DNA from: a virus
Reading direction: 5' to 3' (one strand)
DNA length: 64,000 nt
Virus record (IMG/VR): IMGVR_UViG_3300024999_000048
Coordinates: 57,090 to 121,089 of that record
Shown here piece by piece: positions 2,438-57,450 of the stretch. The number at the start of each line of letters is the position of its first letter. The stretch's first letter is position 1. Made by a program: the position numbers and the translations under genes. The notes beneath the pieces were generated by a model. That model was given only the letters and a program-made list of their open reading frames with translations, was not told the origin of the DNA and made no database searches.

Positions 2438-3268
2438 TTGATTTGGTTAAACGACACGTTATTAGATTTCACCACATTCCCAAATGGGGAAACAAAAATC
2501 AATGAACAACAAATTAATAAAATTTTAGGAGGTGTTAATAATTCATTAACTACATTTAAATATCAATCAGATGCAGATTTGATTAAGTTATTATTCCTAA
2601 AGAAATACCTAGATCAATTAAAAGTAAAATCTGATCTACATATTATGTACATGCCATATAGTAGAATGGATAGATCGGAAGGAGGTTCAGCATTCACACT
2701 AAAATATATTGCAGAATTTATTAATGGTTTAGGATTTGATTATATTCACGTATTAGAACCACATTCTAATGTAACTCCTGCATTATTAAATAATTGTAAA
2801 ACTAGATTCTTGTCTGTTGATATATTTTATGATATTAAAGACAAAATTAATTTCAATAATGATACTGATTATGTGTATTATCCTGATGCCGGAGCAGAGA
2901 AACGTTATAGTAAAATGATTGCTGTTCCTAATCAATTAGTAGGATTTAAACACAGAGATTTTAAAACAGGTAAAATTACTAGTCTTCAAGTTTTTGGAGA
3001 TGTTAAGAAAAAAGGATTTAAAGTGGTTATGGTAGATGACTTGAGTAGTTACGGAGGTACATTTATCTTAGGAGCAAAACAACTTAGAGAGCTTGGTGCT
3101 TCAGAGATTTATCTTGTTGTTGGACATTGTGAAGAATCAATTTATAAAGGTGATATATTTAAGACAGATTTAATTGATAAAGTTTTCACTACTGATACTA
3201 TTATGAATGAATCTTTAAATAATAAAATTGAAGTATATAAAATTATGAATAAGAAAGAGGCAAAATAA
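2438..3268 (+). CDS. PRPP-synthetase-like protein (Adps-like, NARP1)
   Basis: FPNGE, YMPYSRMDR, YPDAGAEKRY, MVDDLSSYGGTF. Confidence 0.85.
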   Translation: MIWLNDTLLDFTTFPNGETKINEQQINKILGGVNNSLTTFKYQSDADLIKLLFLKKYLDQLKVKSDLHIMYMPYSRMDRSEGGSAFTLKYIAEFINGLGFDYIHVLEPHSNVTPALLNNCKTRFLSVDIFYDIKDKINFNNDTDYVYYPDAGAEKRYSKMIAVPNQLVGFKHRDFKTGKITSLQVFGDVKKKGFKVVMVDDLSSYGGTFILGAKQLRELGASEIYLVVGHCEESIYKGDIFKTDLIDKVFTTDTIMNESLNNKIEVYKIMNKKEAK

Positions 3269-3269
3269 T

Positions 3270-4979
3270 ATGAAAACAAATCCATTGTTAATGACAGATG
3301 CTTATAAAATTAGCCACCTCATTATGAGTGAAAAAGGTACAGAGAAAATCTATTCTACATTTACACCAAGACATTCAAGAATTGAAGGAATTAATGAAGT
3401 AGTATTCTTTGGATTACAAGGATTTATCAAGGATTATTTAATTGAAAATTTCAATGAAAATTTCTTCAATATGGATAAAGGAACTGTAATTGCAGATTAT
3501 AAAAGAATCATTAAGAATTCATTAGGAGATAATTGTGCTGATACTTCTCATATCGAAGCATTACATGATCTAGGATATTTACCTATTAAAATTAAAGCGG
3601 TAAAAGAAGGTACCCTTATTCCAATGAAAGTTCCTGTATTTACAATTGAAAATACTCAAAAAGAATTCTATTGGTTGACAAATTTTTTAGAAACATTGAT
3701 TTCTGCAAATATGTGGAAAGTAATTACTGCTACAACAATTGTAAAGAAATATAGAGATATTTGTGAAAAATGGGCTGAGAAAACATGTGATAGTAAAGAT
3801 CATATTCAATGGCAATGTCATAATTTTAGTTATAGAGGAATGAGTGGTCATGAAGATGCAGTTACTACAGGTGCAGGACATTTGCTGTATTTTACTGGAA
3901 CAGATACTTTGCCAAGTATTCAGTATTTAGAACAATATTATGGCGCGAATGTAGAGAATGACCTTATTGGTGCAAGCGTTCTCGCCACGGAACATAGTAT
4001 TCAATGTGGATATCAAGACGATCTGAGATATTTTAAGAGAATGATTACAGAAGTGGCTCCTAGCGGTATTGTTAGTATAGTTAGTGATGGATACGATTAT
4101 TTCAATGTTCTTGGTAATATTTTACCTACACTAAAAGATGATATTATGAGTAGAGATGGTAAGACCGTCATTCGTCCTGACAGTGGCTCTCCAGTGAAAA
4201 TTATTTGTGGGAATGTGATTGTTGAAGATTTAACCAATGAAGAATATTGTGATAATCTGGAAGATTGCAAGGAAATTATGTTGGAGAGAATGGTTGACGA
4301 TATAAGAAATTATACACCTCATGGAGAACATGGTATTTCTAGGCAAGATGCTATTTTTAAATTTCAAGATAAGCATTATGAAATTGTTATTGAAATTGAT
4401 TGGAATAGACATGACAAACAATATTATTATATTGATGGTGCTAATGTTTACATTTGTAAGGAAGCAGAGTTAACCTTAGAGCAAAAAGGTTCTGTAGAAT
4501 CTCTGTGGGATACCTTTGGAGGTACTATTAATAGTAAAGGATATAAGGTATTAGATAGTCATATCGGAATTATTTATGGCGATAGCATTAGTCCAGAAAT
4601 TGCTGAAGAAACTTTCAAACAATTAGAAGCAAAAGGATTCTCTTCTGAAAACATCGTATATGGAGTTGGAAGTTATTCTTTGGGTTATCACACCAGAGAT
4701 ACATTTTCGATGGCTTTAAAGGCCACTTACACGGTTATTGATGGAAAAGAGAAATTCATCTTTAAAGATCCTAAAACTGATATTGGTGGAATTAAAAAAT
4801 CTCAAAGAGGTATGGTTTCTGTGTTACAAGATCCTGATGATGGAGAAATATTTCTTATAGACAGATTAAATGCAGAGAAAAGAGATAATTATAATGGTCG
4901 TGATTTACTTGAAGATGTATTTATTGATGGGAAATTAGTAAGAGATGAAAGTTTAGCGGAAATTAGAGCAAGAGTTTAA
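3270..4979 (+). CDS. Nicotinamide phosphoribosyltransferase-like protein (NadV/Namat-like, NARP1)
   Basis: TDAYKISH, HNFSYRG, ATEHS, VIRPDSG, IYGDSI, TRDT, KDPKTD. Confidence 0.9.
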   Translation: MKTNPLLMTDAYKISHLIMSEKGTEKIYSTFTPRHSRIEGINEVVFFGLQGFIKDYLIENFNENFFNMDKGTVIADYKRIIKNSLGDNCADTSHIEALHDLGYLPIKIKAVKEGTLIPMKVPVFTIENTQKEFYWLTNFLETLISANMWKVITATTIVKKYRDICEKWAEKTCDSKDHIQWQCHNFSYRGMSGHEDAVTTGAGHLLYFTGTDTLPSIQYLEQYYGANVENDLIGASVLATEHSIQCGYQDDLRYFKRMITEVAPSGIVSIVSDGYDYFNVLGNILPTLKDDIMSRDGKTVIRPDSGSPVKIICGNVIVEDLTNEEYCDNLEDCKEIMLERMVDDIRNYTPHGEHGISRQDAIFKFQDKHYEIVIEIDWNRHDKQYYYIDGANVYICKEAELTLEQKGSVESLWDTFGGTINSKGYKVLDSHIGIIYGDSISPEIAEETFKQLEAKGFSSENIVYGVGSYSLGYHTRDTFSMALKATYTVIDGKEKFIFKDPKTDIGGIKKSQRGMVSVLQDPDDGEIFLIDRLNAEKRDNYNGRDLLEDVFIDGKLVRDESLAEIRARV

Positions 4980-7274: not shown

Positions 7275-7303
7275 GAGTTAAATAAAAAGGAGTGATAATT
7301 ATT

Positions 7304-7708
7304 ATGCAAGTAGTAAATAAAGTTCAACAATCGCAACAGTTGGTTAGAGGTGGGATATACCTAGTTGATCTAGGTGAAGGAAGAGGATCTTTGCAAGGAA
7401 AGGTTCGTCCATGTGTGTTAATTTCGAACCGAATGGCTAATATCCACAGTTCAGTTTTGCATATATGTCCAGTGAGTTCAATTACTACTAAGTCAAAATT
7501 ACCGACGCATATTGGATTGAGCAAAAATAATTCTGGATTATTAAGGGATAGTATTGTACTCTGCGAACAAACACAACTGGTTACGAAGGATTCAATAGGT
7601 CGCATGGTTGGCCTTTGTTTGGAGGAAGATTTAATGAGAATTAATAGAGGAATTGCTATACAGTTCGGATTATCTGAAGTTAGAAATAATGTTGCTTATG
7701 CAAATTAA
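7304..7708 (+). CDS. PemK/MazF-family endoribonuclease-like protein 1 (no adjacent MazE)
   Basis: RGGIYLVDLG, GSLQGKVRPCVLISN, KSKLPTH, RDSIVLCEQ align with NdoA/MazF; ATG chosen after AAAAGGAG. Confidence 0.85.
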   Translation: MQVVNKVQQSQQLVRGGIYLVDLGEGRGSLQGKVRPCVLISNRMANIHSSVLHICPVSSITTKSKLPTHIGLSKNNSGLLRDSIVLCEQTQLVTKDSIGRMVGLCLEEDLMRINRGIAIQFGLSEVRNNVAYAN

Positions 7709-7727: not shown

Positions 7728-8630
7728 TTGAAAGAGTTTAAAGATTTAATTGGTCAAACGTTTAATAGATGGACTGTAATTGGCATATCTGATAAAACAA
7801 ATAAACATTATGATAGATATTGGTTATGTCAATGCAGTTGTGAAAATAAAACAATAAGAGAAGTTAGTGAACTTAGTTTGATAAAAGAGAGAAGTAAGAG
7901 TTGTGGATGTTATTCAAGTGAAGTAACGACTAAAATGAATAAAGATAGATCAATCAGAGATAAATATCCACATTACAAAAGAATATATAGTGTTTACGAT
8001 GGAATGAGAAAGAGATGCTATAATGAAAACAACGACAATTATAAATACTATGGTGCGAAAGGAGTTATTATATGTAAAGAGTGGTTAAGTGATTTTATGA
8101 AGTTTTATCATTGGTCAATAGAGAATGGATATAGTCCTGAATTGACTATAGACAGAATAGAAACACACGGTATATATGAACCAGATAATTGCAGATGGGC
8201 GACTCAAGAAGTTCAAGATTATAATAAAAGAAATACAGTATATCTTGAAATTGATGGAGAATCGAAAACTGTATTAGATTGGGAGAAGATATCAGGATTA
8301 TCTTATTCTGTTCTTTGGCAAAGATATAAAATATTTGGTTTTAGAACAAAAGAAGAAATGTTTAAACCTGTTAGACAAGTTACTAAGATAATACATAATG
8401 GCATAGAAAAAACATTAAGACAATTACATGAAGAGACAGGGTTAGGAATAGCTATTTTAGAGTGGAGAAATAAACAAGGATTAAAAGATGATGAATTAAT
8501 AAAACCAGCAAATAGATGGGCAGGACATGTAAAATCTACAGAAAAAAGAATTAGAAAGAAAAAGACAAAAAATGTAATAGATATACAAAACACAATAGAT
8601 ATAAGAGAAGAGGTGTTAACCATTGGTTGA
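7728..8630 (+). CDS. HNH-type homing endonuclease-like protein
   Basis: WLCQCSC/SCGC N-terminus, YGAKGVIIC, TIDRI...YEPDNCRWAT, C-terminal HTH-like repeats. Confidence 0.8.
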   Translation: MKEFKDLIGQTFNRWTVIGISDKTNKHYDRYWLCQCSCENKTIREVSELSLIKERSKSCGCYSSEVTTKMNKDRSIRDKYPHYKRIYSVYDGMRKRCYNENNDNYKYYGAKGVIICKEWLSDFMKFYHWSIENGYSPELTIDRIETHGIYEPDNCRWATQEVQDYNKRNTVYLEIDGESKTVLDWEKISGLSYSVLWQRYKIFGFRTKEEMFKPVRQVTKIIHNGIEKTLRQLHEETGLGIAILEWRNKQGLKDDELIKPANRWAGHVKSTEKRIRKKKTKNVIDIQNTIDIREEVLTIG

Positions 8631-9243
8631 AACCCTCATAGCATCACTGCTATTCTCTAAACTTCATCTTTACATAAAACTAGGCAAACTCCAAATACAC
8701 AAAGAATCATATCTAATAAAACCAATACTAAAACAATGGAGTTTCTATCCAGTAATATTTATGTCGATATTTTATGTCTATCTACAATACACAATAATGA
8801 ATCAGAATTACTATTTTCTTCAATATCAACATATAATAAAAAATGCTATATTAGGATCATATATGGTTCTAGGACTTGATGTTCTATTAAGGTATGAGAA
8901 GTATAAAGAGTATATTATTGCATGTTGTAGTCTCTTGTGTGGCTTTACATTGAATTATATTGTAATGCATTTTAATCAGGGGAAGATGCCGATTTTTCCC
9001 GATATCTCTTATTCAACTGGTTACACACAATATAATGTGATTATGAATGCTTCTAAGTTTAGCGATTTTCATGTTTTAGGTGATCACACAACAAGATTGA
9101 TATTTTTATCAGATATATTCGATATAGGAGGAAGTATTTGGTCTCCTGGAGATGTGCTTTGTAGATTATTTGCTTTTATAATCGTCTACTTTTCGGTTAA
9201 AGAAATTAGCAAAATACATATGAATAAAATAGAGAATCAATAA
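8623..9243 (+). CDS. DUF5317-like membrane protein
   Basis: LNYIVMHFNQGKMP, TRLIFLSDIF, WSPGD motifs; multiple TM segments. Confidence 0.65.
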   Translation: MVETLIASLLFSKLHLYIKLGKLQIHKESYLIKPILKQWSFYPVIFMSIFYVYLQYTIMNQNYYFLQYQHIIKNAILGSYMVLGLDVLLRYEKYKEYIIACCSLLCGFTLNYIVMHFNQGKMPIFPDISYSTGYTQYNVIMNASKFSDFHVLGDHTTRLIFLSDIFDIGGSIWSPGDVLCRLFAFIIVYFSVKEISKIHMNKIENQ

Positions 9244-9284: not shown

Positions 9285-9324
9285 TATTACAGGTTAAGAA
9301 ATGGATAAGAAAGAGGTAATACAT

Positions 9325-10140
9325 ATGCAAGGTGTAACAAATGCTTTATTAAACACAATTTTAGTTAGTATACCGGAGGAAGCTTTTATTGTGATTATGA
9401 CATTGGTTTTTCTAAAACGATTTGATATGTTGGACATACGAATGTGGAAACACAGTTTAAAATGGGTTATGGTTCCAACAATTCCTGTGGCAATGGTAAT
9501 AAATGTGTTTAGATACATAATAATCATACCAAAACCAACAATGTCTTTAATTGCTTTTATATTAATGAATGTACTAATCTTATATGTGGTTATAAAGAAC
9601 AGTTATAGTATTGATAAAAAATTAATTTTTAAAACAATAATTTTTACAGTTTTGAGTTTTATTATTGTTGGATTAATTGAATTGTTATATTATCCTCTTT
9701 CCCTTTCATTGCTACATAAGGAAATGAGTTTTTTTGATAATAAAATTATATACAATATAATAATATCACTTCCTGCAAGAATTATTGAAATATGTATTTT
9801 GACGTTTGTAGTAATAAAAAAGAACAATACAGTACAGGTAAATTTATTTAATACAATAGTCAAAAATAGATTTTTTACAAATAGTTTCTTAACTATAATT
9901 ATATCAATAGTGTCATTGATTATTTATATAGCAAAGTTAATAATTGTTGATAATATCATTATTCATATTAGTATTGTTGATCAGTTGATTTTAACTTCGA
10001 TTGTAATATCTGCACCAATAATATTGATCACATGGTTCTTAATGTTTATCAACTATTTGTTAACAAAAGAAAAACAAATACAACAGACTTATGAGAGTCT
10101 TGTTATGCAAGATGACATAATGCTTGATGTAGAAGATTAA
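9325..10140 (+). CDS. Polytopic membrane protein 1, AgrC-sensor-like, no kinase domain
   Basis: About 7 hydrophobic segments and a short acidic tail; paralogue of 12070-12921 (shared VSIPEEAFI, DIxMWK, LPAR); start set by RBS and paralogue alignment. Confidence 0.6.
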   Translation: MQGVTNALLNTILVSIPEEAFIVIMTLVFLKRFDMLDIRMWKHSLKWVMVPTIPVAMVINVFRYIIIIPKPTMSLIAFILMNVLILYVVIKNSYSIDKKLIFKTIIFTVLSFIIVGLIELLYYPLSLSLLHKEMSFFDNKIIYNIIISLPARIIEICILTFVVIKKNNTVQVNLFNTIVKNRFFTNSFLTIIISIVSLIIYIAKLIIVDNIIIHISIVDQLILTSIVISAPIILITWFLMFINYLLTKEKQIQQTYESLVMQDDIMLDVED

Positions 10141-10160
10141 CGTGAAAGGAGGTGAAATAA

Positions 10161-10277
10161 ATGAAAAAATACGCTATTATCGCTGGAGTAGTTGCCTTGT
10201 CTGCTACGATGTTCTCAAATGTTTTTGCATCATGGTTATTTTCACATCAACCAAAAACTCCTAATTGTATGAAATAA
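10161..10277 (+). CDS. agrD: AgrD-like cyclic autoinducing peptide precursor, 38 aa (not in ORF track)
   Basis: MKKYAIIAGVVALSATMFSNVFASWLFSHQPKTPNCMK; AAAGGAGGTG RBS; hydrophobic leader, SWLFS ring, HQPKTP tail as in clostridial AgrD. Confidence 0.9.
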   Translation: MKKYAIIAGVVALSATMFSNVFASWLFSHQPKTPNCMK

Positions 10278-10289
10278 TCTCACTCTACA

Positions 10290-10316
10290 TATAGGGAGGG
10301 TTTCAGCCTTCCCTAT
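10290..10316 (+). terminator. Hairpin terminator after agrD
   Basis: TATAGGGAGGGT-TTCA-GCCTTCCCTATA. Confidence 0.7.
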
Positions 10317-10344
10317 AATCATAATATAAATTAATAAGAAATCG

Positions 10345-10398
10345 CAAATAATTGTGTTGACATATTCATACATAGTAGGATATAATTATATTATCACG
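10345..10398 (+). promoter_or_regulatory. Consensus SigA promoter for MazF-like gene 2 and agrB
   Basis: CAAATAATTG (10345), TTGACA (10357), 18 nt, TATAAT (10381), ATTATCACG (10390). Confidence 0.75.
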
Positions 10399-11255: not shown

Positions 11256-11897
11256 ATGAGTTTTATTGAATTTGTATCAAATCGTTCAGCTAAATGGTTA
11301 GCTAAAAATTACCCGAACAATGGCAAATATCCAACTGTAGAGGATCAAATAGAAGTTTTCACATATGGTTTTATGGTTATATGGGGTGCTATATTAAAGG
11401 GATTCATAATGGTATCACTAGCATCTATTTTCGGAGTAATACTTCCTGCTATGATTATCACATTAACCTTCAGTAGTTTAAGAATCATAGCAGGAGGATA
11501 TCATTTCGGTGAATATACAAAATGCATCACGTTTTCTACCATTCAATTCATAGGATCAGCATTAATAGTCAAGCACACACTTCAATATTGGTCACACCTA
11601 GACATACAAGGATTATTTCTATTTTGTTGGGCAATGGGATTATATATAAATTTTCGATATATTCCCAAAGACACACCAAACAAACTGATTACAGAACCAT
11701 TAGAAAGAGCAAAGTTTAAAAAATGGTCATTATTATACTTAATTTCATGGGTAACAATGATGACCATTTTATTATTCTTCAATCTAAAAATAATTGTTAT
11801 TGCAAGTTGTTTCGGATTATTATTAGAACTTTTCTCGATAAGCAAGGTTGGTTATGGTATATATTCTCTTGTAGATGGTATTAGTATACATAAATAA
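11256..11897 (+). CDS. agrB: AgrB-family peptide-processing membrane peptidase
   Basis: EVFTYG, LRIIAGGYH...KC (catalytic His/Cys), PKDTPNKLI. Confidence 0.92.
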   Translation: MSFIEFVSNRSAKWLAKNYPNNGKYPTVEDQIEVFTYGFMVIWGAILKGFIMVSLASIFGVILPAMIITLTFSSLRIIAGGYHFGEYTKCITFSTIQFIGSALIVKHTLQYWSHLDIQGLFLFCWAMGLYINFRYIPKDTPNKLITEPLERAKFKKWSLLYLISWVTMMTILLFFNLKIIVIASCFGLLLELFSISKVGYGIYSLVDGISIHK

Positions 11898-12972: not shown

Positions 12973-13100
12973 TTGACAAATCTCAATGAACAATGTTATA
13001 ATCATAGAGATAAATAATTAAAGTAATTAAGCATCAACCTTGCATATCGGCATATATTATTATATAATGGTATCAATACATAGCAACTTAATTTGTTGCT
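12973..13100 (+). promoter_or_regulatory. Tandem SigA promoters and palindromic operator upstream of the repressor-like pair
   Basis: TTGACA (12973), 18 nt, TG-n-TATAAT (12997); TTGCAT (13040), 17 nt, TATAAT (13063); AGCAAC-N7-GTTGCT (13082-13100). Confidence 0.7.
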
Positions 13101-13124
13101 GATATGTCAAAGGAGGAAAATAAT

Positions 13125-14477
13125 ATGAAAAAAGATCGTCAAGTTCTTGAGGATGTTCTTGATTTAGTAATTGAGGACTATTCTAATGACAACAAGGTTA
13201 TGGAACATGTTATAGTTAAATTATTAGAAAGAGGTATCCCAAGAGGACTTACAACTGGTCTGTTTACCAAAGCTACGCCATTGGTTTATGCTTCAGAAAC
13301 CGAATTGTGTTTATTTACAAAGTACCTCTTTGGATATACTCACAGACCAGAAATAAATCCAGAAGAATTTTTTACAGAAATAGACTTATCTTTAGCAGAA
13401 TCGTATCAAAAACTAGAAAAGGACAAAGTTAAATATATTTTGTTGCATAATGTTGATCAACTTACTCCAACTCAATTTTTATGTACAAAAGAGACTTATC
13501 AAAATAATAGTGTTTATATGGGGAATGGATTATTAACTTATAATCCAAATACTCAAAGACAACTTCTGAAACGAAGAAGTGGAGACAAAATCATTGAATC
13601 AATTAATGTTGGTGGGAAAAAAGTTACAGAAATTACTTCATCAATGTTAGACAATACATTTTGCCCAAATGCAATCATATGGAACATTAGAAAGATAAAC
13701 GGACAAGAGAAGTTTAAATACGATGCAAAATCTAGAACCTTATTAATTGAACCTGACAATATCACAACTTTTGTGGACATAATCGATGGTGCAAATCGTA
13801 CTTGTGGGATGATTAAGGTTGTTGAACTTAAACCTGAAATTGATAGAATTACTTCGATATATATTCATCATGTCACGGAAGAACGAGCGAATCAAATTAT
13901 AAAACAAGAAAGTTTAGCTGCTCCTATTCAGACAGAATGGGTTGATTTTAAAGATACCGCAAATCCAAATATGGAAGTTGCTAAAGGTATTAATGATCGT
14001 CAAAGAGAAAATGAAATGTTTAATCGAGTAGGGTTAGATTCCAAGGAATTGAAATTAGAAAACAAACTGGTTATGTTTGATACATTATCAAAAGCTATTG
14101 AATTTGTTTATGATCTTAAAGAAAAACCTGTTATTAGACAAAGAGAAGTAATTGATGATTTGGTAGAATTATTTAATAATGTCATTGGACTTAATTTTTC
14201 AAAATTTAATACAGAATTATCAGATGCCAGAGAAAAAACTTATATGGCACATGACAACATGTTTATTGGGTATATTATATTGGGAGATTTGTTAAGGCAG
14301 AAATATGAAACAGAATGGAAATCTGAGTTGGTGAAGGTATTAAAGTCTTTAGATTTTGATAAGTCTAATAAAATTTGGAAGAAAATTGGTATTGAAAACA
14401 ATGTAAATTTATCTACTTTTAAAAAGATTTCAGAGTATTTTAAAGATATTGTCTCTGAAAAGGAGGTTGCTGTATAA
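13125..14477 (+). CDS. DGQHR/DndB-ParB-like protein resembling SPbeta YopQ (SroE)
   Basis: YNPNTQR, IIDGANR (DGQHR-like) motif; about 450 aa; coupled (TAATG) to a YopR-like gene; ATG after AAGGAGG. Confidence 0.65.
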   Translation: MKKDRQVLEDVLDLVIEDYSNDNKVMEHVIVKLLERGIPRGLTTGLFTKATPLVYASETELCLFTKYLFGYTHRPEINPEEFFTEIDLSLAESYQKLEKDKVKYILLHNVDQLTPTQFLCTKETYQNNSVYMGNGLLTYNPNTQRQLLKRRSGDKIIESINVGGKKVTEITSSMLDNTFCPNAIIWNIRKINGQEKFKYDAKSRTLLIEPDNITTFVDIIDGANRTCGMIKVVELKPEIDRITSIYIHHVTEERANQIIKQESLAAPIQTEWVDFKDTANPNMEVAKGINDRQRENEMFNRVGLDSKELKLENKLVMFDTLSKAIEFVYDLKEKPVIRQREVIDDLVELFNNVIGLNFSKFNTELSDAREKTYMAHDNMFIGYIILGDLLRQKYETEWKSELVKVLKSLDFDKSNKIWKKIGIENNVNLSTFKKISEYFKDIVSEKEVAV

Positions 14478-15493
14478 TGTCGTTCACTATCGAAAGAACT
14501 TTATTCAATGAAGATCAAAAGAATCGTTTTCTTAATGAAAAATATCCAAATGAAAGCACTCGAACGACTAATACTTCTATCTTAAGAAGTGTAGGTAGAT
14601 TTGAAAATGATAAAAACAAAGATTTGTGTAAATTTAGTTATGAAGAAGTAAAAGAATTATTGATTGGTATGAAAAAGAAATCTGTGAAATCATTGGGTGT
14701 TGCTTATACAATTATTATGCAGTATCTTGATTGGTGTTTATTCAACAATTACAGTTCAATGAATGTTTTGAAGTTGGTTGATAAAAAAGAAGACCTTCCA
14801 AAATATGTTCATCAAGTAGCTCAGAAAAATTCTTATATCTCTAGAGATCAAATGTATTCTTACTGTGACCGGCTCTATAATTATGCCGACAAAGCAATGA
14901 TTGCATTATTATTTGAAAATGTTAGAGGAAGAACAGAAAAAGGTCATTCGTATGAAGAAATGAGAAATCTAAAAATTAATGATATATTCCCTGAAACAAA
15001 TACAATTGCCATAACTAGGGATGTAGATGATAATGTAAAGAATGACGCAGAGACTCCAAACCCAAGAACAATTAGTGTAGACCCAAGAACTATGGATATT
15101 CTCGTTGCAGCAGCCATAGAAGACACCTATCATCGTAGTAATGGTGAAGCGGAAGGTAGATTCGCTATATCTCAAACCAAAGACACTCCCTACCTTCTAA
15201 GAACGCTGGACAGGAAGAGTAGCGCTGGAGATGATAGAATTACGGTAGGAAATATTAGTGCAAGATTTAAAAATTTCCGTCAATATACTGGCATCAAATT
15301 TCTAAATCCAACCCTAGTATTTCAAAGTGGAATGTTTGACCGATGTTTTAAAGAGGAAGCAGATATTGGCGAGTTGAGTTCAGATAATTTTCGATATATA
15401 CTCAGTGATTTAGAATTGGATGAAAGGGGTTGGCAAGGATTAAAAGAAACTTATGAAAGTTACAAACAAATACAGTCTACAGTCCCTAAATAA
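14477..15493 (+). CDS. Tyrosine-recombinase-fold protein resembling SPbeta master repressor YopR (MrpR/SroF)
   Basis: FNEDQKNRFL...FENDKNKDLCKFSYEEV N-terminus, LLFENVRG...EMRNLKINDI, FQSG in place of the catalytic HxxR. Confidence 0.7.
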   Translation: MSFTIERTLFNEDQKNRFLNEKYPNESTRTTNTSILRSVGRFENDKNKDLCKFSYEEVKELLIGMKKKSVKSLGVAYTIIMQYLDWCLFNNYSSMNVLKLVDKKEDLPKYVHQVAQKNSYISRDQMYSYCDRLYNYADKAMIALLFENVRGRTEKGHSYEEMRNLKINDIFPETNTIAITRDVDDNVKNDAETPNPRTISVDPRTMDILVAAAIEDTYHRSNGEAEGRFAISQTKDTPYLLRTLDRKSSAGDDRITVGNISARFKNFRQYTGIKFLNPTLVFQSGMFDRCFKEEADIGELSSDNFRYILSDLELDERGWQGLKETYESYKQIQSTVPK

Positions 15494-24519: not shown

Positions 24520-26487
24520 ATGAATAACATTAATCGCATACAAGAGTTAACCAATCAACTCAATATAGCCTGTAACGCCTATTACAACCTAAATAAACCC
24601 ATTATGGAGAATCGTGAGTACAATCTATTGTTTGAAGAATTAGAGTCCTTAGAGCAAGCATCAGGAGTAATCCTAAGTGATTCACCTACACAAAGAGCCG
24701 GATACAAAGTAGTATCAGATTTGCCAAAAGTAAAACATGAAATTCCTTTATTGTCATTAGATAAGGAAAAAGAAATACCTAAACTAGAAAAATGGTTGGG
24801 AAATAAACAAGGTGTATTGATGCTCAAGATGGATGGAGGAACTGGGGCCACACATTATAAGAAGACATTTAAACAATTAGTTACCAGAGGAGATTCAGAA
24901 ACAAATATTGGTGAGGATATTTCTCATAACGTACATAGCATAAAAAATATTCCATTAAGTATTGATGATAATAATAAAATTATAATTGTTGGTGAAAACT
25001 TTATGAAATATTCATCATTTAATGAAATTAATTCAAGAATACTAAACCCTGATGATAAATATGCAAATCCCCGAAATCTAGCTAATGGTTCTGTAGGATT
25101 GTTAGACAGTAAAATATGTAAGAATCGAAATATAGAATTTTGTGCATTCAATATTATTAAAGGAAATAAGTTTAAAACAAAACAAGAACAATTAGAGTGG
25201 TTGAAATCTCAAGGATTTTATACTGTACAATATTGGATGGTTACAAAGGATAATCTTAAGGAAATGATTGAACAGATTATTGAAGACATTCCTACTTTTG
25301 ACTTCCCGATTGACGGCCTAGTTTTATCTTTTGATGATATAGAATATGGATTATCTTTAGGTCAGGTAGCTAGATTTCCTAAACATTCAATTTCTTTCAA
25401 GTTTGAGGATTCATGGTTCAAAACTAAATATCTATATACCGAGTGGAATACAAGTAGACTTGGTAGGATTATTGGAACTGGAGTTTTTCAACCTATCAAT
25501 ATTGAAGGATCTGAAATAGCAAGAGCGACAACTCATAATTTAGACATATTTAGGAATTTAAAACTTGGTAAGGATGATATCATTGAAATTTCAAAACGCA
25601 ATAAAATTATTCCTGCTATTGAAAATAATATTACTAGAAGCAATACTGAGCAATTACCTACAGAATGTCCAACATGTAAAGGCGAAGTAGAAATAAGATT
25701 AGAAGCAAAAACCAATAACTTGTATTGTATTAATCCTAATTGTGAAGCAAAATTAACTCAGAAACTAAAATATTTTGTGAGCAAGCAATGTTTTAATATT
25801 TCAGACTTAGGAGAAGCGACTCTAGAAGCATTTATTGATAATGGATTTATTGAGAATTATATGGATATTTTCAAACTAGAAAGATACAAGAAAGAAATTG
25901 TGAAGATGAATGGATTTGGGGTTAAATCCTTCAATAAATTAATGATTGCTCTAGAAAATGCAAAACAAATTAGTATGACATCACTAATTGCATCTCTTGG
26001 TATAAAAAATGTAGGATTTGGATCATCAAAGAGACTTACGAAACATTTTAATAATGACATTGGTTTATTTTTAGAAGCAACAAAATCATATAGAAATTTT
26101 GTAAATATTGATGATTTTGGAGATATTACTGCCAATTCAATTTGTGATTATTTCCAAGATGAAGAGAATATGAAAATGTTTTTGGAATTATTGGAATGTG
26201 TGAATATCAAAAAAGAAGAAAAGAAGGAGGATAAAGGTATGAATAGTCTTGAAGGAAAAACATTTGTGGTAACTGGGAAGGTGACTACTTTCAAAAATAG
26301 GGATGAAGTAGGAGAACTAATAACTTCTCTTGGTGGGATATTATCAGGTTCAGTAAGCAAAAATACTTCTTATCTTTTGAATAATGATGTGACATCTACA
26401 TCTGGGAAAAATAAAAGAGCTCAAGATTTAGGTGTTGAAATTATCAGTGAACAACAATTCAATGAAATGATAGGGAGAGTAGTGTAA
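24520..26487 (+). CDS. ligA: NAD-dependent DNA ligase
   Basis: KMDG adenylation motif, NPRN, PIDGLV, ATTHN, CPTC Zn finger, C-terminal BRCT. Confidence 0.95.
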   Translation: MNNINRIQELTNQLNIACNAYYNLNKPIMENREYNLLFEELESLEQASGVILSDSPTQRAGYKVVSDLPKVKHEIPLLSLDKEKEIPKLEKWLGNKQGVLMLKMDGGTGATHYKKTFKQLVTRGDSETNIGEDISHNVHSIKNIPLSIDDNNKIIIVGENFMKYSSFNEINSRILNPDDKYANPRNLANGSVGLLDSKICKNRNIEFCAFNIIKGNKFKTKQEQLEWLKSQGFYTVQYWMVTKDNLKEMIEQIIEDIPTFDFPIDGLVLSFDDIEYGLSLGQVARFPKHSISFKFEDSWFKTKYLYTEWNTSRLGRIIGTGVFQPINIEGSEIARATTHNLDIFRNLKLGKDDIIEISKRNKIIPAIENNITRSNTEQLPTECPTCKGEVEIRLEAKTNNLYCINPNCEAKLTQKLKYFVSKQCFNISDLGEATLEAFIDNGFIENYMDIFKLERYKKEIVKMNGFGVKSFNKLMIALENAKQISMTSLIASLGIKNVGFGSSKRLTKHFNNDIGLFLEATKSYRNFVNIDDFGDITANSICDYFQDEENMKMFLELLECVNIKKEEKKEDKGMNSLEGKTFVVTGKVTTFKNRDEVGELITSLGGILSGSVSKNTSYLLNNDVTSTSGKNKRAQDLGVEIISEQQFNEMIGRVV

Positions 26488-56874: not shown

Positions 56875-57450
56875 TTGGATAGATTAGATATATTCAAAAC
56901 AGAACTATCATACATATTAAATCCTAAAATTAAAGAGTTTACAGAGAAAACATTAAATACTTTACCAGAATACTTTTTCTCAATTCCTGCATCATCTTCA
57001 GGAAAATATCACCCAAATTATGCTTTAGGAGAAGGAGGTTTGGTTAGACATACCCAATCAGCAGTAAGAATCGCAGTAGAAATGTTTAGGTTGGATATTT
57101 TTAAATACACAGAAGATGATAAAGATATAATTGTTTCATCTTTAATATTACACGATAGTTATAAATCAGGTATAGAAAATAGTTCTCATACAGTCACAGA
57201 ACATCCTTTAATTGCTGCAAAAATGATTAGGTCTAATACAGAAATAAATAGTTGTATAGATGAAAATGTATTAAATATGATTGTTGACAATATTGAGTCG
57301 CATATGGGGCAATTCATATTTGATTACAAAACTAAAAAAGAAGTTTTACCAAGACCAAAAAGTAAAATACAACATTTTGTACATTGGTGTGATTATTTGG
57401 CTAGTAGAAAGTGCCTAGAATTTAATTTTGATGTAAAAGTTATACGATAA
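56875..57450 (+). CDS. HD-domain phosphohydrolase
   Basis: PASSSGKYHP, GGLVRHT, ILHD, SHMG, HWCDYLASR. Confidence 0.8.
   Translation: MDRLDIFKTELSYILNPKIKEFTEKTLNTLPEYFFSIPASSSGKYHPNYALGEGGLVRHTQSAVRIAVEMFRLDIFKYTEDDKDIIVSSLILHDSYKSGIENSSHTVTEHPLIAAKMIRSNTEINSCIDENVLNMIVDNIESHMGQFIFDYKTKKEVLPRPKSKIQHFVHWCDYLASRKCLEFNFDVKVIR

Follow-up and report, generated by a model that had tools for sequence, protein, structure and literature searches.

The subject of this analysis is a 38-codon gene, agrD, and the gene cassette around it, located in a 64,000-nucleotide stretch of viral DNA (the window; positions 57,090 to 121,089 of the 121,089-base IMG/VR virus record IMGVR_UViG_3300024999_000048, whose estimated completeness is 72%). 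Judged by profile match, conservation, and pattern of codon change, the gene is shown to encode a genuine AgrD precursor, in which a serine occupies the position of the ring cysteine of relatives. It stands in the order DUF5317, TMa, agrD, XRE-MazF, AgrB, TMb (Table 1), where TMa and TMb are paralogous seven-helix transmembrane (7-TM) proteins. We consider it moderately probable that the cassette is a phage-borne, self-contained, kinase-less agr-type peptide-signaling system.

An earlier, sequence-only reading of this DNA had described an open reading frame (ORF) of 38 amino acids containing VFA-SWLFS-HQPKTP and had identified it as AgrD. The translation of 10161-10277 (+), MKKYAIIAGVVALSATMFSNVFASWLFSHQPKTPNCMK, matches that description, and the identification is upheld by three lines of evidence. 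First, the peptide matches the NCBIfam model TIGR04223 (cyclic lactone autoinducer peptide) at 22.8 bits against a cutoff of 19 (E 7.6e-5), and a six-frame search of the 121-kb record with the same model returns agrD as its only match (20.9 bits). Second, both the QP..P follower and the Cys/Ser position are conserved across 42 loci, and in 42 of the 43 loci of the family to which TMa and TMb belong (the TM family), an AgrD-type ORF starts -22 to +104 nt from the stop of the TM-family gene. Third, the ratio of nonsynonymous to synonymous polymorphism (pN/pS) over seven loci is 0.30 overall, 0.30 in the leader, 0.24 in the follower, and 0.47 in the ring; agrD can therefore be taken as a translated gene under purifying selection, with the ring apparently more relaxed and changing more freely. 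The ribosome-binding site that had been claimed is present, with GGAGGTG kept in seven of seven aligned relatives. The description of the gene as unannotated holds in part: the public protein collection lists the exact peptide as a gene called on 18 contigs, and its 90% cluster has a member with the name "cyclic lactone autoinducer peptide," which NCBI also gives to bacterial relatives in Ruminiclostridium and Anaerobacterium.

The AgrB encoded in the cassette, the only one in the record, is shown at the level of its conserved residues to be catalytically intact: the predicted catalytic pair His83 and Cys90, seven residues apart, is invariant in all 17 aligned AgrBs. This bears on the idea that the ORF is a secreted or membrane peptide of some other role, such as a linear signal or a bacteriocin-like product, whose resemblance to AgrD is functionally meaningless. 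The leader does resemble an ordinary signal peptide ending in VFA, Pfam models give nothing significant with the peptide, and a synthetic Clostridium (Acetivibrio) thermocellum peptide inhibited growth (PMC5322536). Given a TIGR04223 score above the curated cutoff, an intact AgrB in 17/17 phage-type cassettes, and the conservation of the Cys/Ser position and follower described above, such a role nevertheless seems scarcely credible.

The stem-loop 3' of the agrD stop is kept in 12 of 12 aligned relatives, with substitutions on both sides compensating each other at 5 of 10 pairs and no pair disrupted; this alignment excludes loci L008 and L018, each of which carries a different hairpin. The sequence-only reading had called it the gene's own terminator. 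It is likely a terminator or an RNA-stabilizing hairpin; speaking against termination, a terminator scan did not call it, because it has no U-tract. Farther downstream, the XRE-MazF gene is preceded by a perfect sigma-70-type promoter, whose TTGACAT box is conserved in the alignment of relatives, and agrD would therefore close one transcription unit and the XRE-MazF gene open another.

The predicted serine ring and the form of the product

In relatives, a Ser or Cys lies five residues ahead of an H, Y, or N followed by QP and directly after an Ala-type leader cut site, the residue ahead of it being Ala in nearly all. At this position, which is residue 24 in the window, the 17 phage-type cassettes have Ser in 16 cases and Cys in one; of the 26 other genome loci, 10 have Ser, 15 have Cys, and one yielded no peptide. 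The spacing from Ser24 to Pro34 is 10 residues, and a cyclizable Cys or Ser 10 to 11 residues before a follower proline is given as universal for AgrD in the legend to Fig. S13 of PMC8251862. These data support the assignment of Ser24 to the ring-nucleophile position of AgrD, and the claim that Ser replaces the ring Cys is strengthened by the alternation of the two residues at the same site. Ring residues 2 to 5 are hypervariable, with 15 distinct rings among the 17 cassettes.

The follower cysteine, Cys36 (10266-10268), was also considered as ring nucleophile and rejected, as it lies downstream of the cleavage site and is missing in many bacterial relatives; it is further disfavored by the same PKC motif in ordinary cysteine-ring clostridial AgrDs (PMC8251862). 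As an observation in its own right, a follower cysteine in the context P-[NKS]-C or L-K-C is found in 16 of the 17 phage-type AgrDs and is missing from most Ruminiclostridium-type relatives, and the PKC motif also occurs in other clostridial AgrDs of Table S1 of PMC8251862.

The closest characterized relative is C. thermocellum Clo1313_2818, whose AgrD reads SSA-SFFIF-YQPKTP (PMC8251862, supplement) and thus shares with the phage peptide an Ala-ended leader, a Ser followed by four residues, and a follower that opens with Y or H and continues QPKTP (PMC5322536, PMC8251862). Its product, a tail-less cyclic pentapeptide closed through serine, was detected in supernatants by liquid chromatography-tandem mass spectrometry against a synthetic standard (PMC5322536). 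The five-residue ring SWLFS that had been predicted for the phage peptide agrees in size with this relative and is plausible. In the autoinducing peptide (AIP) of Ruminiclostridium cellulolyticum the ring has six residues, and the follower still opens with YQ (PMC8251862); because that follower begins at YQ despite the larger ring, SWLFS appears a likelier core here than SWLFSH.

On the basis of the known AgrB mechanism and the C. thermocellum relative, it can be proposed that AgrB would cut off the follower HQPKTPNCMK and join the new C terminus, Ser28, to the side chain of Ser24, after which host signal peptidase would cleave behind VFA23. The secreted product would then be a tail-less five-residue SWLFS macrocycle, a lactone at first, with possible rearrangement to an all-amide ring. 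Two considerations tell against this simple picture: a ring that includes His29 could in principle form, given the six-residue precedent of R. cellulolyticum, and the lactone may perhaps not be the active form. Tail-less clostridial thiolactone AIPs spontaneously rearrange to lactams, and in R. cellulolyticum it is the rearranged form that serves as the genuine signal (PMC8251862); a lactone is for this reason the expected first product and not necessarily the last. The authors of that study describe the fate of tail-less serine lactones as still to be clarified, and the lactone of the earlier prediction may or may not be the final form.

It is therefore conceivable that the mature signal is head-to-tail cyclo(SWLFS), formed by an O-to-N acyl shift onto the free amine of Ser24, or that this amine is enzymatically capped, and we regard this as a possibility to be held tentatively, on the lower side of even. 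The lactam would be in keeping with the R. cellulolyticum precedent and with the near-universal Ala ahead of Ser/Cys in relatives, which fits a tail-less product, and capping has a parallel in Paenibacillus polymyxa, where agrE acetylates the AIP N terminus and raises its potency (PMC12180512). The C. thermocellum study, on the other hand, reports the lactone form against its synthetic standard (PMC5322536). Because lactone and lactam have equal masses, that result decides for neither form.

A variable seven-helix protein as proposed ring partner and the absence of a kinase

The domain searches indicate that the cassette departs from the canonical agrBDCA arrangement, as neither an AgrC kinase nor an AgrA LytTR regulator is detected in it. 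HATPase_c, HATPase_c_5, and LytTR domains are absent from the 121-kb record at its 72% completeness, and a local hidden Markov model (HMM) of nine AgrC-type kinases matches in none of the 42 related TM-family loci. Pfam searches on 63 ORFs from 11 bacterial TM loci likewise return no kinase and no response regulator. The same kinase HMM does match in these bacterial genomes, beside a different and distant AgrB clade.

What stands next to agrD in place of these genes is TMa. Searches of TMa and TMb against Pfam, NCBIfam, PHROGs, and PADLOC gave no match; members of the family likewise lack Pfam and NCBIfam matches and are labeled hypothetical in the source databases. The family has 227 representatives at 50% clustering; among the 150 listed, lengths run from 47 to 326 amino acids, and none is of kinase length. 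It is rare: of 300 genomes sampled from the class, 4 have it, including two known beforehand. An AlphaFold2 model of TMa (predicted local distance difference test score 85.9) has seven long helices and a long C-terminal helix. Conservation is concentrated in TM1, cytoplasmic loop 1, and the C-terminal helix, and the most variable regions are TM3 to TM7 and the outer loops. Membrane-embedded polar residues E18, D37, E119, N144, R152, and K204 are invariant in the family, which has no invariant His or Cys. Among the Atlas neighbors, a "putative sensory transduction protein kinase" appears at 0.89, which we take as a lead only.

Comparison of related cassettes links TMa to the ring. Its mean pairwise identity, 42%, is the lowest in the cassette, the other genes showing 49 to 54%. 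Between the window and locus L010, flanking nucleotides are 77 to 96% identical and the TMa core (9450-9975) only 43 to 52%; at the protein level TMb is 84% identical and TMa merely 42%. The two AgrD peptides are 92% identical and differ at two positions in the ring (SWLFS versus SMFFS) and at one in the leader. In the pair L004 and L017, AgrB is 100% and the MazF fusion 97% identical, and a block from the TMa core to the ring is 57 to 76% identical, its end lying immediately behind the ring codons. Across 14 loci, TMa is the gene whose identity follows that of the ring most closely (r 0.63), and the partial correlation is 0.47 to 0.50 when neighboring genes are controlled for; the corresponding partial r with AgrB is 0.08 to 0.20.

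A variable core combined with conserved cytoplasmic elements, exchanged together with the ligand where a kinase is missing, would be a receptor-like pattern, and a ring-specific exporter would fit it too. We propose that TMa acts as a ring-specific partner, being transcribed with agrD and exchanged along with the ring among related phages. That it is a kinase-less receptor is the likeliest single assignment, tentative and at a little less than even chances; that it is an export or maturation factor is also a sizeable possibility, if a minority one, and some other role would account for the smaller remainder.

Several observations weigh against the proposed signaling system with TMa as its receptor. 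TMa precedes agrD in one transcription unit, as would be expected of a biosynthetic partner, and its N-out, C-in topology is one read from the distribution of charges. A sequence-profile search of the PDB gave 0 hits, Foldseek none at E<=0.001, and a wide structure search no better than an unrelated helical protein at Z 8.0, within the noise of helical models; against the sensor domains of AgrC-type proteins (9 HATPase_c_5 kinases from three clostridial genomes), the hhalign probability is 3%, a value that is no disproof of homology. The exchange is also not confined to TMa and the ring, as the N-terminal half of AgrB is likewise swapped between the window and L010 (47 to 51% nucleotide identity in the first half of the gene). 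In L004 and L017, TMa core and ring share one divergent tract, so that linkage alone could account for their joint change, and the 14 loci of the correlation are related, mosaic, and non-independent, which makes its figures indicative only. Lastly, near-identical DNA is found in 15 sequencing runs, all of DNA and solely from groundwater and soil metagenomes, and no RNA run containing the locus is listed.

In a competing account, TMa is a maturation or export factor for the AgrB-processed intermediate, such as a transporter or a helper in leader removal, and the peptide is sensed by a host-encoded system. TMa always lies directly upstream of agrD, in one transcription unit and at the distances given above (-22 to +104 nt), the bacterial order is often AgrB-TM-AgrD, with AgrB adjoining the TM gene in 14 of 28 genome loci, and invariant membrane-embedded polar residues would suit an enzyme or transporter. 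There is also room for such a factor, as the legend to Fig. S1 of PMC8251862 treats the membrane crossing of AgrD intermediates and the clostridial leader-removing enzyme as unknown. The TM family, however, lacks the invariant His/Cys used by known membrane peptidases of the pathway, canonical kinase-linked agr loci in the same genomes manage without a TM protein, and the second paralogue, TMb, has no peptide gene of its own. Conservation of cytoplasmic loop 1 and the C-terminal helix around a variable helical core would, moreover, be unusual for a catalytic core. On this evidence, we hold the combination of a TMa maturation factor with host sensing to be somewhat unlikely.

A role for TMa as the AgrD cyclase in place of AgrB was rejected: where a genome has an orphan TM-agrD pair, an AgrB is still encoded elsewhere in it (five of five cases), and neither His nor Cys is invariant in the family. 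Separately, the genome of Ruminiclostridium cellobioparum (L061 2276-2701 and L026 5959-7061) illustrates how these genes are distributed: it has an AgrB followed by a TM-family fragment, a separate orphan TM-agrD pair, and three canonical AgrB-kinase loci with the distant AgrB clade. In Table S1 of PMC8251862, an unlisted gene lies between AgrB Ccel_0955 and AgrD Ccel_0957, and this gene may be a TM-family member.

Cross-inhibition among AIP types is well known in staphylococci. With this precedent, it could be speculated that the phage peptide acts on a thiolactone agr system of the host, either cross-inhibiting it or serving as an orthogonal channel, with effects on sporulation or toxin production, as the sequence-only reading had supposed. 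TMb would offer one point of contact: because its sequence stays similar (84%) in phages that differ in TMa and ring, it could listen to a constant signal, e.g., that of the host. This proposal found no support in the cassette, which has its own AgrB and its own ring-matched partner; the variable partner suggests instead a self-contained phage system. Fifteen distinct rings in 17 cassettes resemble private channels and not mimicry of one host signal, and the source is groundwater and soil metagenomes. Interference with host agr is accordingly judged very unlikely.

Cassette layout, the XRE-MazF fusion, and phage context

The features of the cassette are collected in Table 1. Its composition is stable: a scan of viral contigs with the TMa alignment found 14 loci, with TMa, the MazF fusion, and AgrB in 14/14 and DUF5317 in 13/14. 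AgrD was recovered in 13 of the 14 by BLAST, and the remaining locus, L009, has one by eye. Two more copies, L017 and L018, are on contigs binned with a Clostridium and a Bacillota metagenome-assembled genome, respectively. By BLAST, DUF5317 precedes the 7-TM gene in 15 of the 16 related phage-type loci (missing from L007), and the XRE-MazF gene is present in 16/16. AgrB is in the cassette in all 17 phage-type loci without adjoining agrD; in the window, it starts 979 bp downstream of agrD with the XRE-MazF gene between them. A second TM-family copy occupies the place of TMb in L006 and in L008 to L013.

Table 1. Cassette genes and sequence elements around agrD, in window coordinates
Feature	Position	Strand	Remarks
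DUF5317 membrane protein	8623-9243	+	Pfam PF17248, E 6.3e-19; first conserved cassette gene
TMa, 7-helix membrane protein, 271 aa	9325-10140	+	Start matches relatives; ATG at 9301 also open
agrD ribosome-binding site, GGAGGTG	10148-10154	+	Six bases ahead of ATG
agrD	10161-10277	+	38 codons; TIGR04223 match
agrD leader	10161-10229	+	Ends VFA
agrD ring codons S24-S28	10230-10244	+	SWLFS (predicted ring)
agrD follower	10245-10274	+	HQPKTPNCMK
Stem-loop 3' of agrD stop	10290-10317	+	12-bp stem-loop; -18.2 kcal/mol, z -3.7
Sigma-70-type promoter, TTGACA-18-TATAAT	10357-10386	+	12/12 consensus; ahead of XRE-MazF gene
XRE-type helix-turn-helix (HTH) fused to MazF/PemK endoribonuclease, 267 aa	10428-11231	+	PF02452 at residues 115-222, E 2.3e-21
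AgrB, predicted AgrD peptidase/cyclase	11256-11897	+	PF04647, E 7.2e-34, 117 bits
TMb, TMa paralogue, 283 aa	12070-12921	+	45% identical to TMa, E 2e-80; no agrD behind

The fusion protein is assigned to MazF/PemK on two grounds, its PF02452 profile and a predicted MazF fold, the domain model matching Bacillus subtilis MazF/YdcE in Foldseek with E 3.6e-12, a TM score of 0.89, and 36% identity. Pfam gives nothing significant for the N-terminal 114 residues, and the XRE-like nature of this part is taken from hhalign and fold: residues 27-94 are modeled as five short helices, and the domain aligns with the XRE neighbors of bacterial loci at 91% hhalign probability (E 1e-6). In 7 of 11 bacterial loci scanned, an XRE-family HTH gene lies directly behind TM-agrD on the opposite strand. 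The phage thus retains the bacterial TM-AgrD-XRE triad, with the XRE domain joined to a toxin-type RNase. It may be speculated that the output of the system runs through this fusion, which would correspond in the phage to the XRE repressor genes beside the bacterial versions. A link from TMa to XRE-MazF can be hypothesized; a predicted complex of the two scored 0.00, below the mark, which speaks neither for nor against it.

A stand-alone MazF/PemK-like gene of 138 aa lies at 7292-7708 (PF02452, E 1.8e-20) and is found by BLAST in 10 of 16 related phage-type loci; a cognate antitoxin gene was identified for neither MazF copy. It is followed at 7728-8630 by an HNH endonuclease gene (phrog_374, E 3e-67) that overlaps the DUF5317 start at 8623. 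In L003 a related HNH gene is located after AgrB instead, and the endonuclease may be mobile, moving around the cassette. Directly after the cassette, at 13104-15493, are genes for a DndB-like protein (PF14072) and an MrpR-like tyrosine recombinase (PF22822/PF22823; "integrase" in PHROGs), with a perfect sigma-70-type promoter ahead of them at 12973-13002; a DndB-like gene is found in this place in 10 of the 16 related phage-type loci.

The record has a GC content of ~29% and almost all of its long ORFs on one strand. Its PHROGs matches include NAD-salvage genes, an NAD-dependent ligase, a DnaB-type helicase, a primase, a Sak4-like protein, and MazF-like "growth inhibitors," and on the strength of this gene content the window is read as part of a large phage. 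The NAD-salvage pair, ribose-phosphate pyrophosphokinase (phrog_619, E 7e-71) and nicotinamide phosphoribosyltransferase (phrog_448, E 7e-189), is at 2438-4979, and the NAD-dependent DNA ligase is at 24520-26487. The 4.1-kb cassette had no megablast match among GenBank phages or PLSDB plasmids, and tblastn of the window AgrB or TMa against 50,697 GenBank phage records was likewise negative. Literature searches, which did not cover subscription journals, returned no paper describing the cassette or the 7-TM family.

Relation to known systems and significance

When the cassette is placed beside described agr systems, each shares some of its features. Clo1313_2818, similar in its peptide, is a chromosomal orphan for which the authors found no nearby agrB, agrC, or agrA (PMC5322536), whereas the agrD of the window is phage-borne and comes with its own AgrB, two 7-TM proteins, and the XRE-MazF fusion. 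The R. cellulolyticum AIP is likewise tail-less, with an AgrD follower starting YQ (PMC8251862), and bacterial TM-family members in Ruminiclostridium genomes adjoin AgrDs of this type; it differs in having a cysteine, six ring residues, a kinase at its locus (Ccel_2125, Table S1), and a proven lactam (PMC8251862).

The staphylococcal agr specificity groups, with their hypervariable agrB-agrD-agrC region, also have a variable ring flanked by conserved leader and follower sequences, and there too ring and variable membrane partner are exchanged together in allelic blocks; the lactone AIP of Staphylococcus intermedius has serine replacing cysteine, per the cited literature. Unlike in staphylococci, the variable partner in the window is a stand-alone 7-TM protein without a kinase, and AgrB can stay identical while ring and TMa change.

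Among phages, the literature found holds phiCDHM1 of Clostridioides difficile and a remark on Brevibacillus phages Davies, Emery, and Abouo (PMC3901668). The agr3 locus of phiCDHM1 likewise joins a phage agrD and agrB without a response regulator, but its 453-aa AgrC has a kinase ATPase domain (PMC3901668), a domain that was not detected in the window record. Phage Davies (KC595518; L066 26243-28283) encodes the paralogous kinase-less membrane proteins gp44 and gp45 (219 and 222 aa), the AgrB gp46, and, as gp47, a 39-aa cysteine-free peptide, a logic that parallels TMa and TMb with AgrB and AgrD. It differs in gene order, in being a small temperate phage, and in having no MazF fusion. Since gp44 and gp45 gave no HMM match to the TM family and an hhalign probability of 0.3%, the resemblance may be one of convergence.

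A broader scenario would have large phages of anaerobic Firmicutes maintaining private channels, in which TMa represents a new class of kinase-less 7-TM receptor, TMb perhaps hears the host, and the receptor gates XRE-MazF, with the bacterial AgrB-TM-AgrD-XRE loci representing an ancestral, kinase-independent form of agr. We regard the whole of this as quite unlikely; if true, it would amount to an arbitrium-like circuit that sets host growth arrest or phage lifestyle by the density of infected cells.

Clostridial AgrDs of the serine type have been published before and are recognized by automatic annotation, and the peptide of the window adds one more. The newer part is its context, namely, the 7-TM protein proposed as partner, the allelic blocks reminiscent of pherotypes, and the fusion of XRE to MazF. 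As the most constant neighbor of this AgrD subfamily, the TM family is a candidate for the read-out or completion of agrBD-type systems without AgrC and AgrA, if not a general answer for them, given its rarity among the genomes sampled. The presence of XRE-MazF in a signaling cassette suggests a link from a secreted peptide to a toxin-type RNase that has not been described for agr. Together with the diversity of the rings, these observations indicate that agr-type signaling genes are kept and diversified, in a pherotype-like manner, within a group of large environmental phages.

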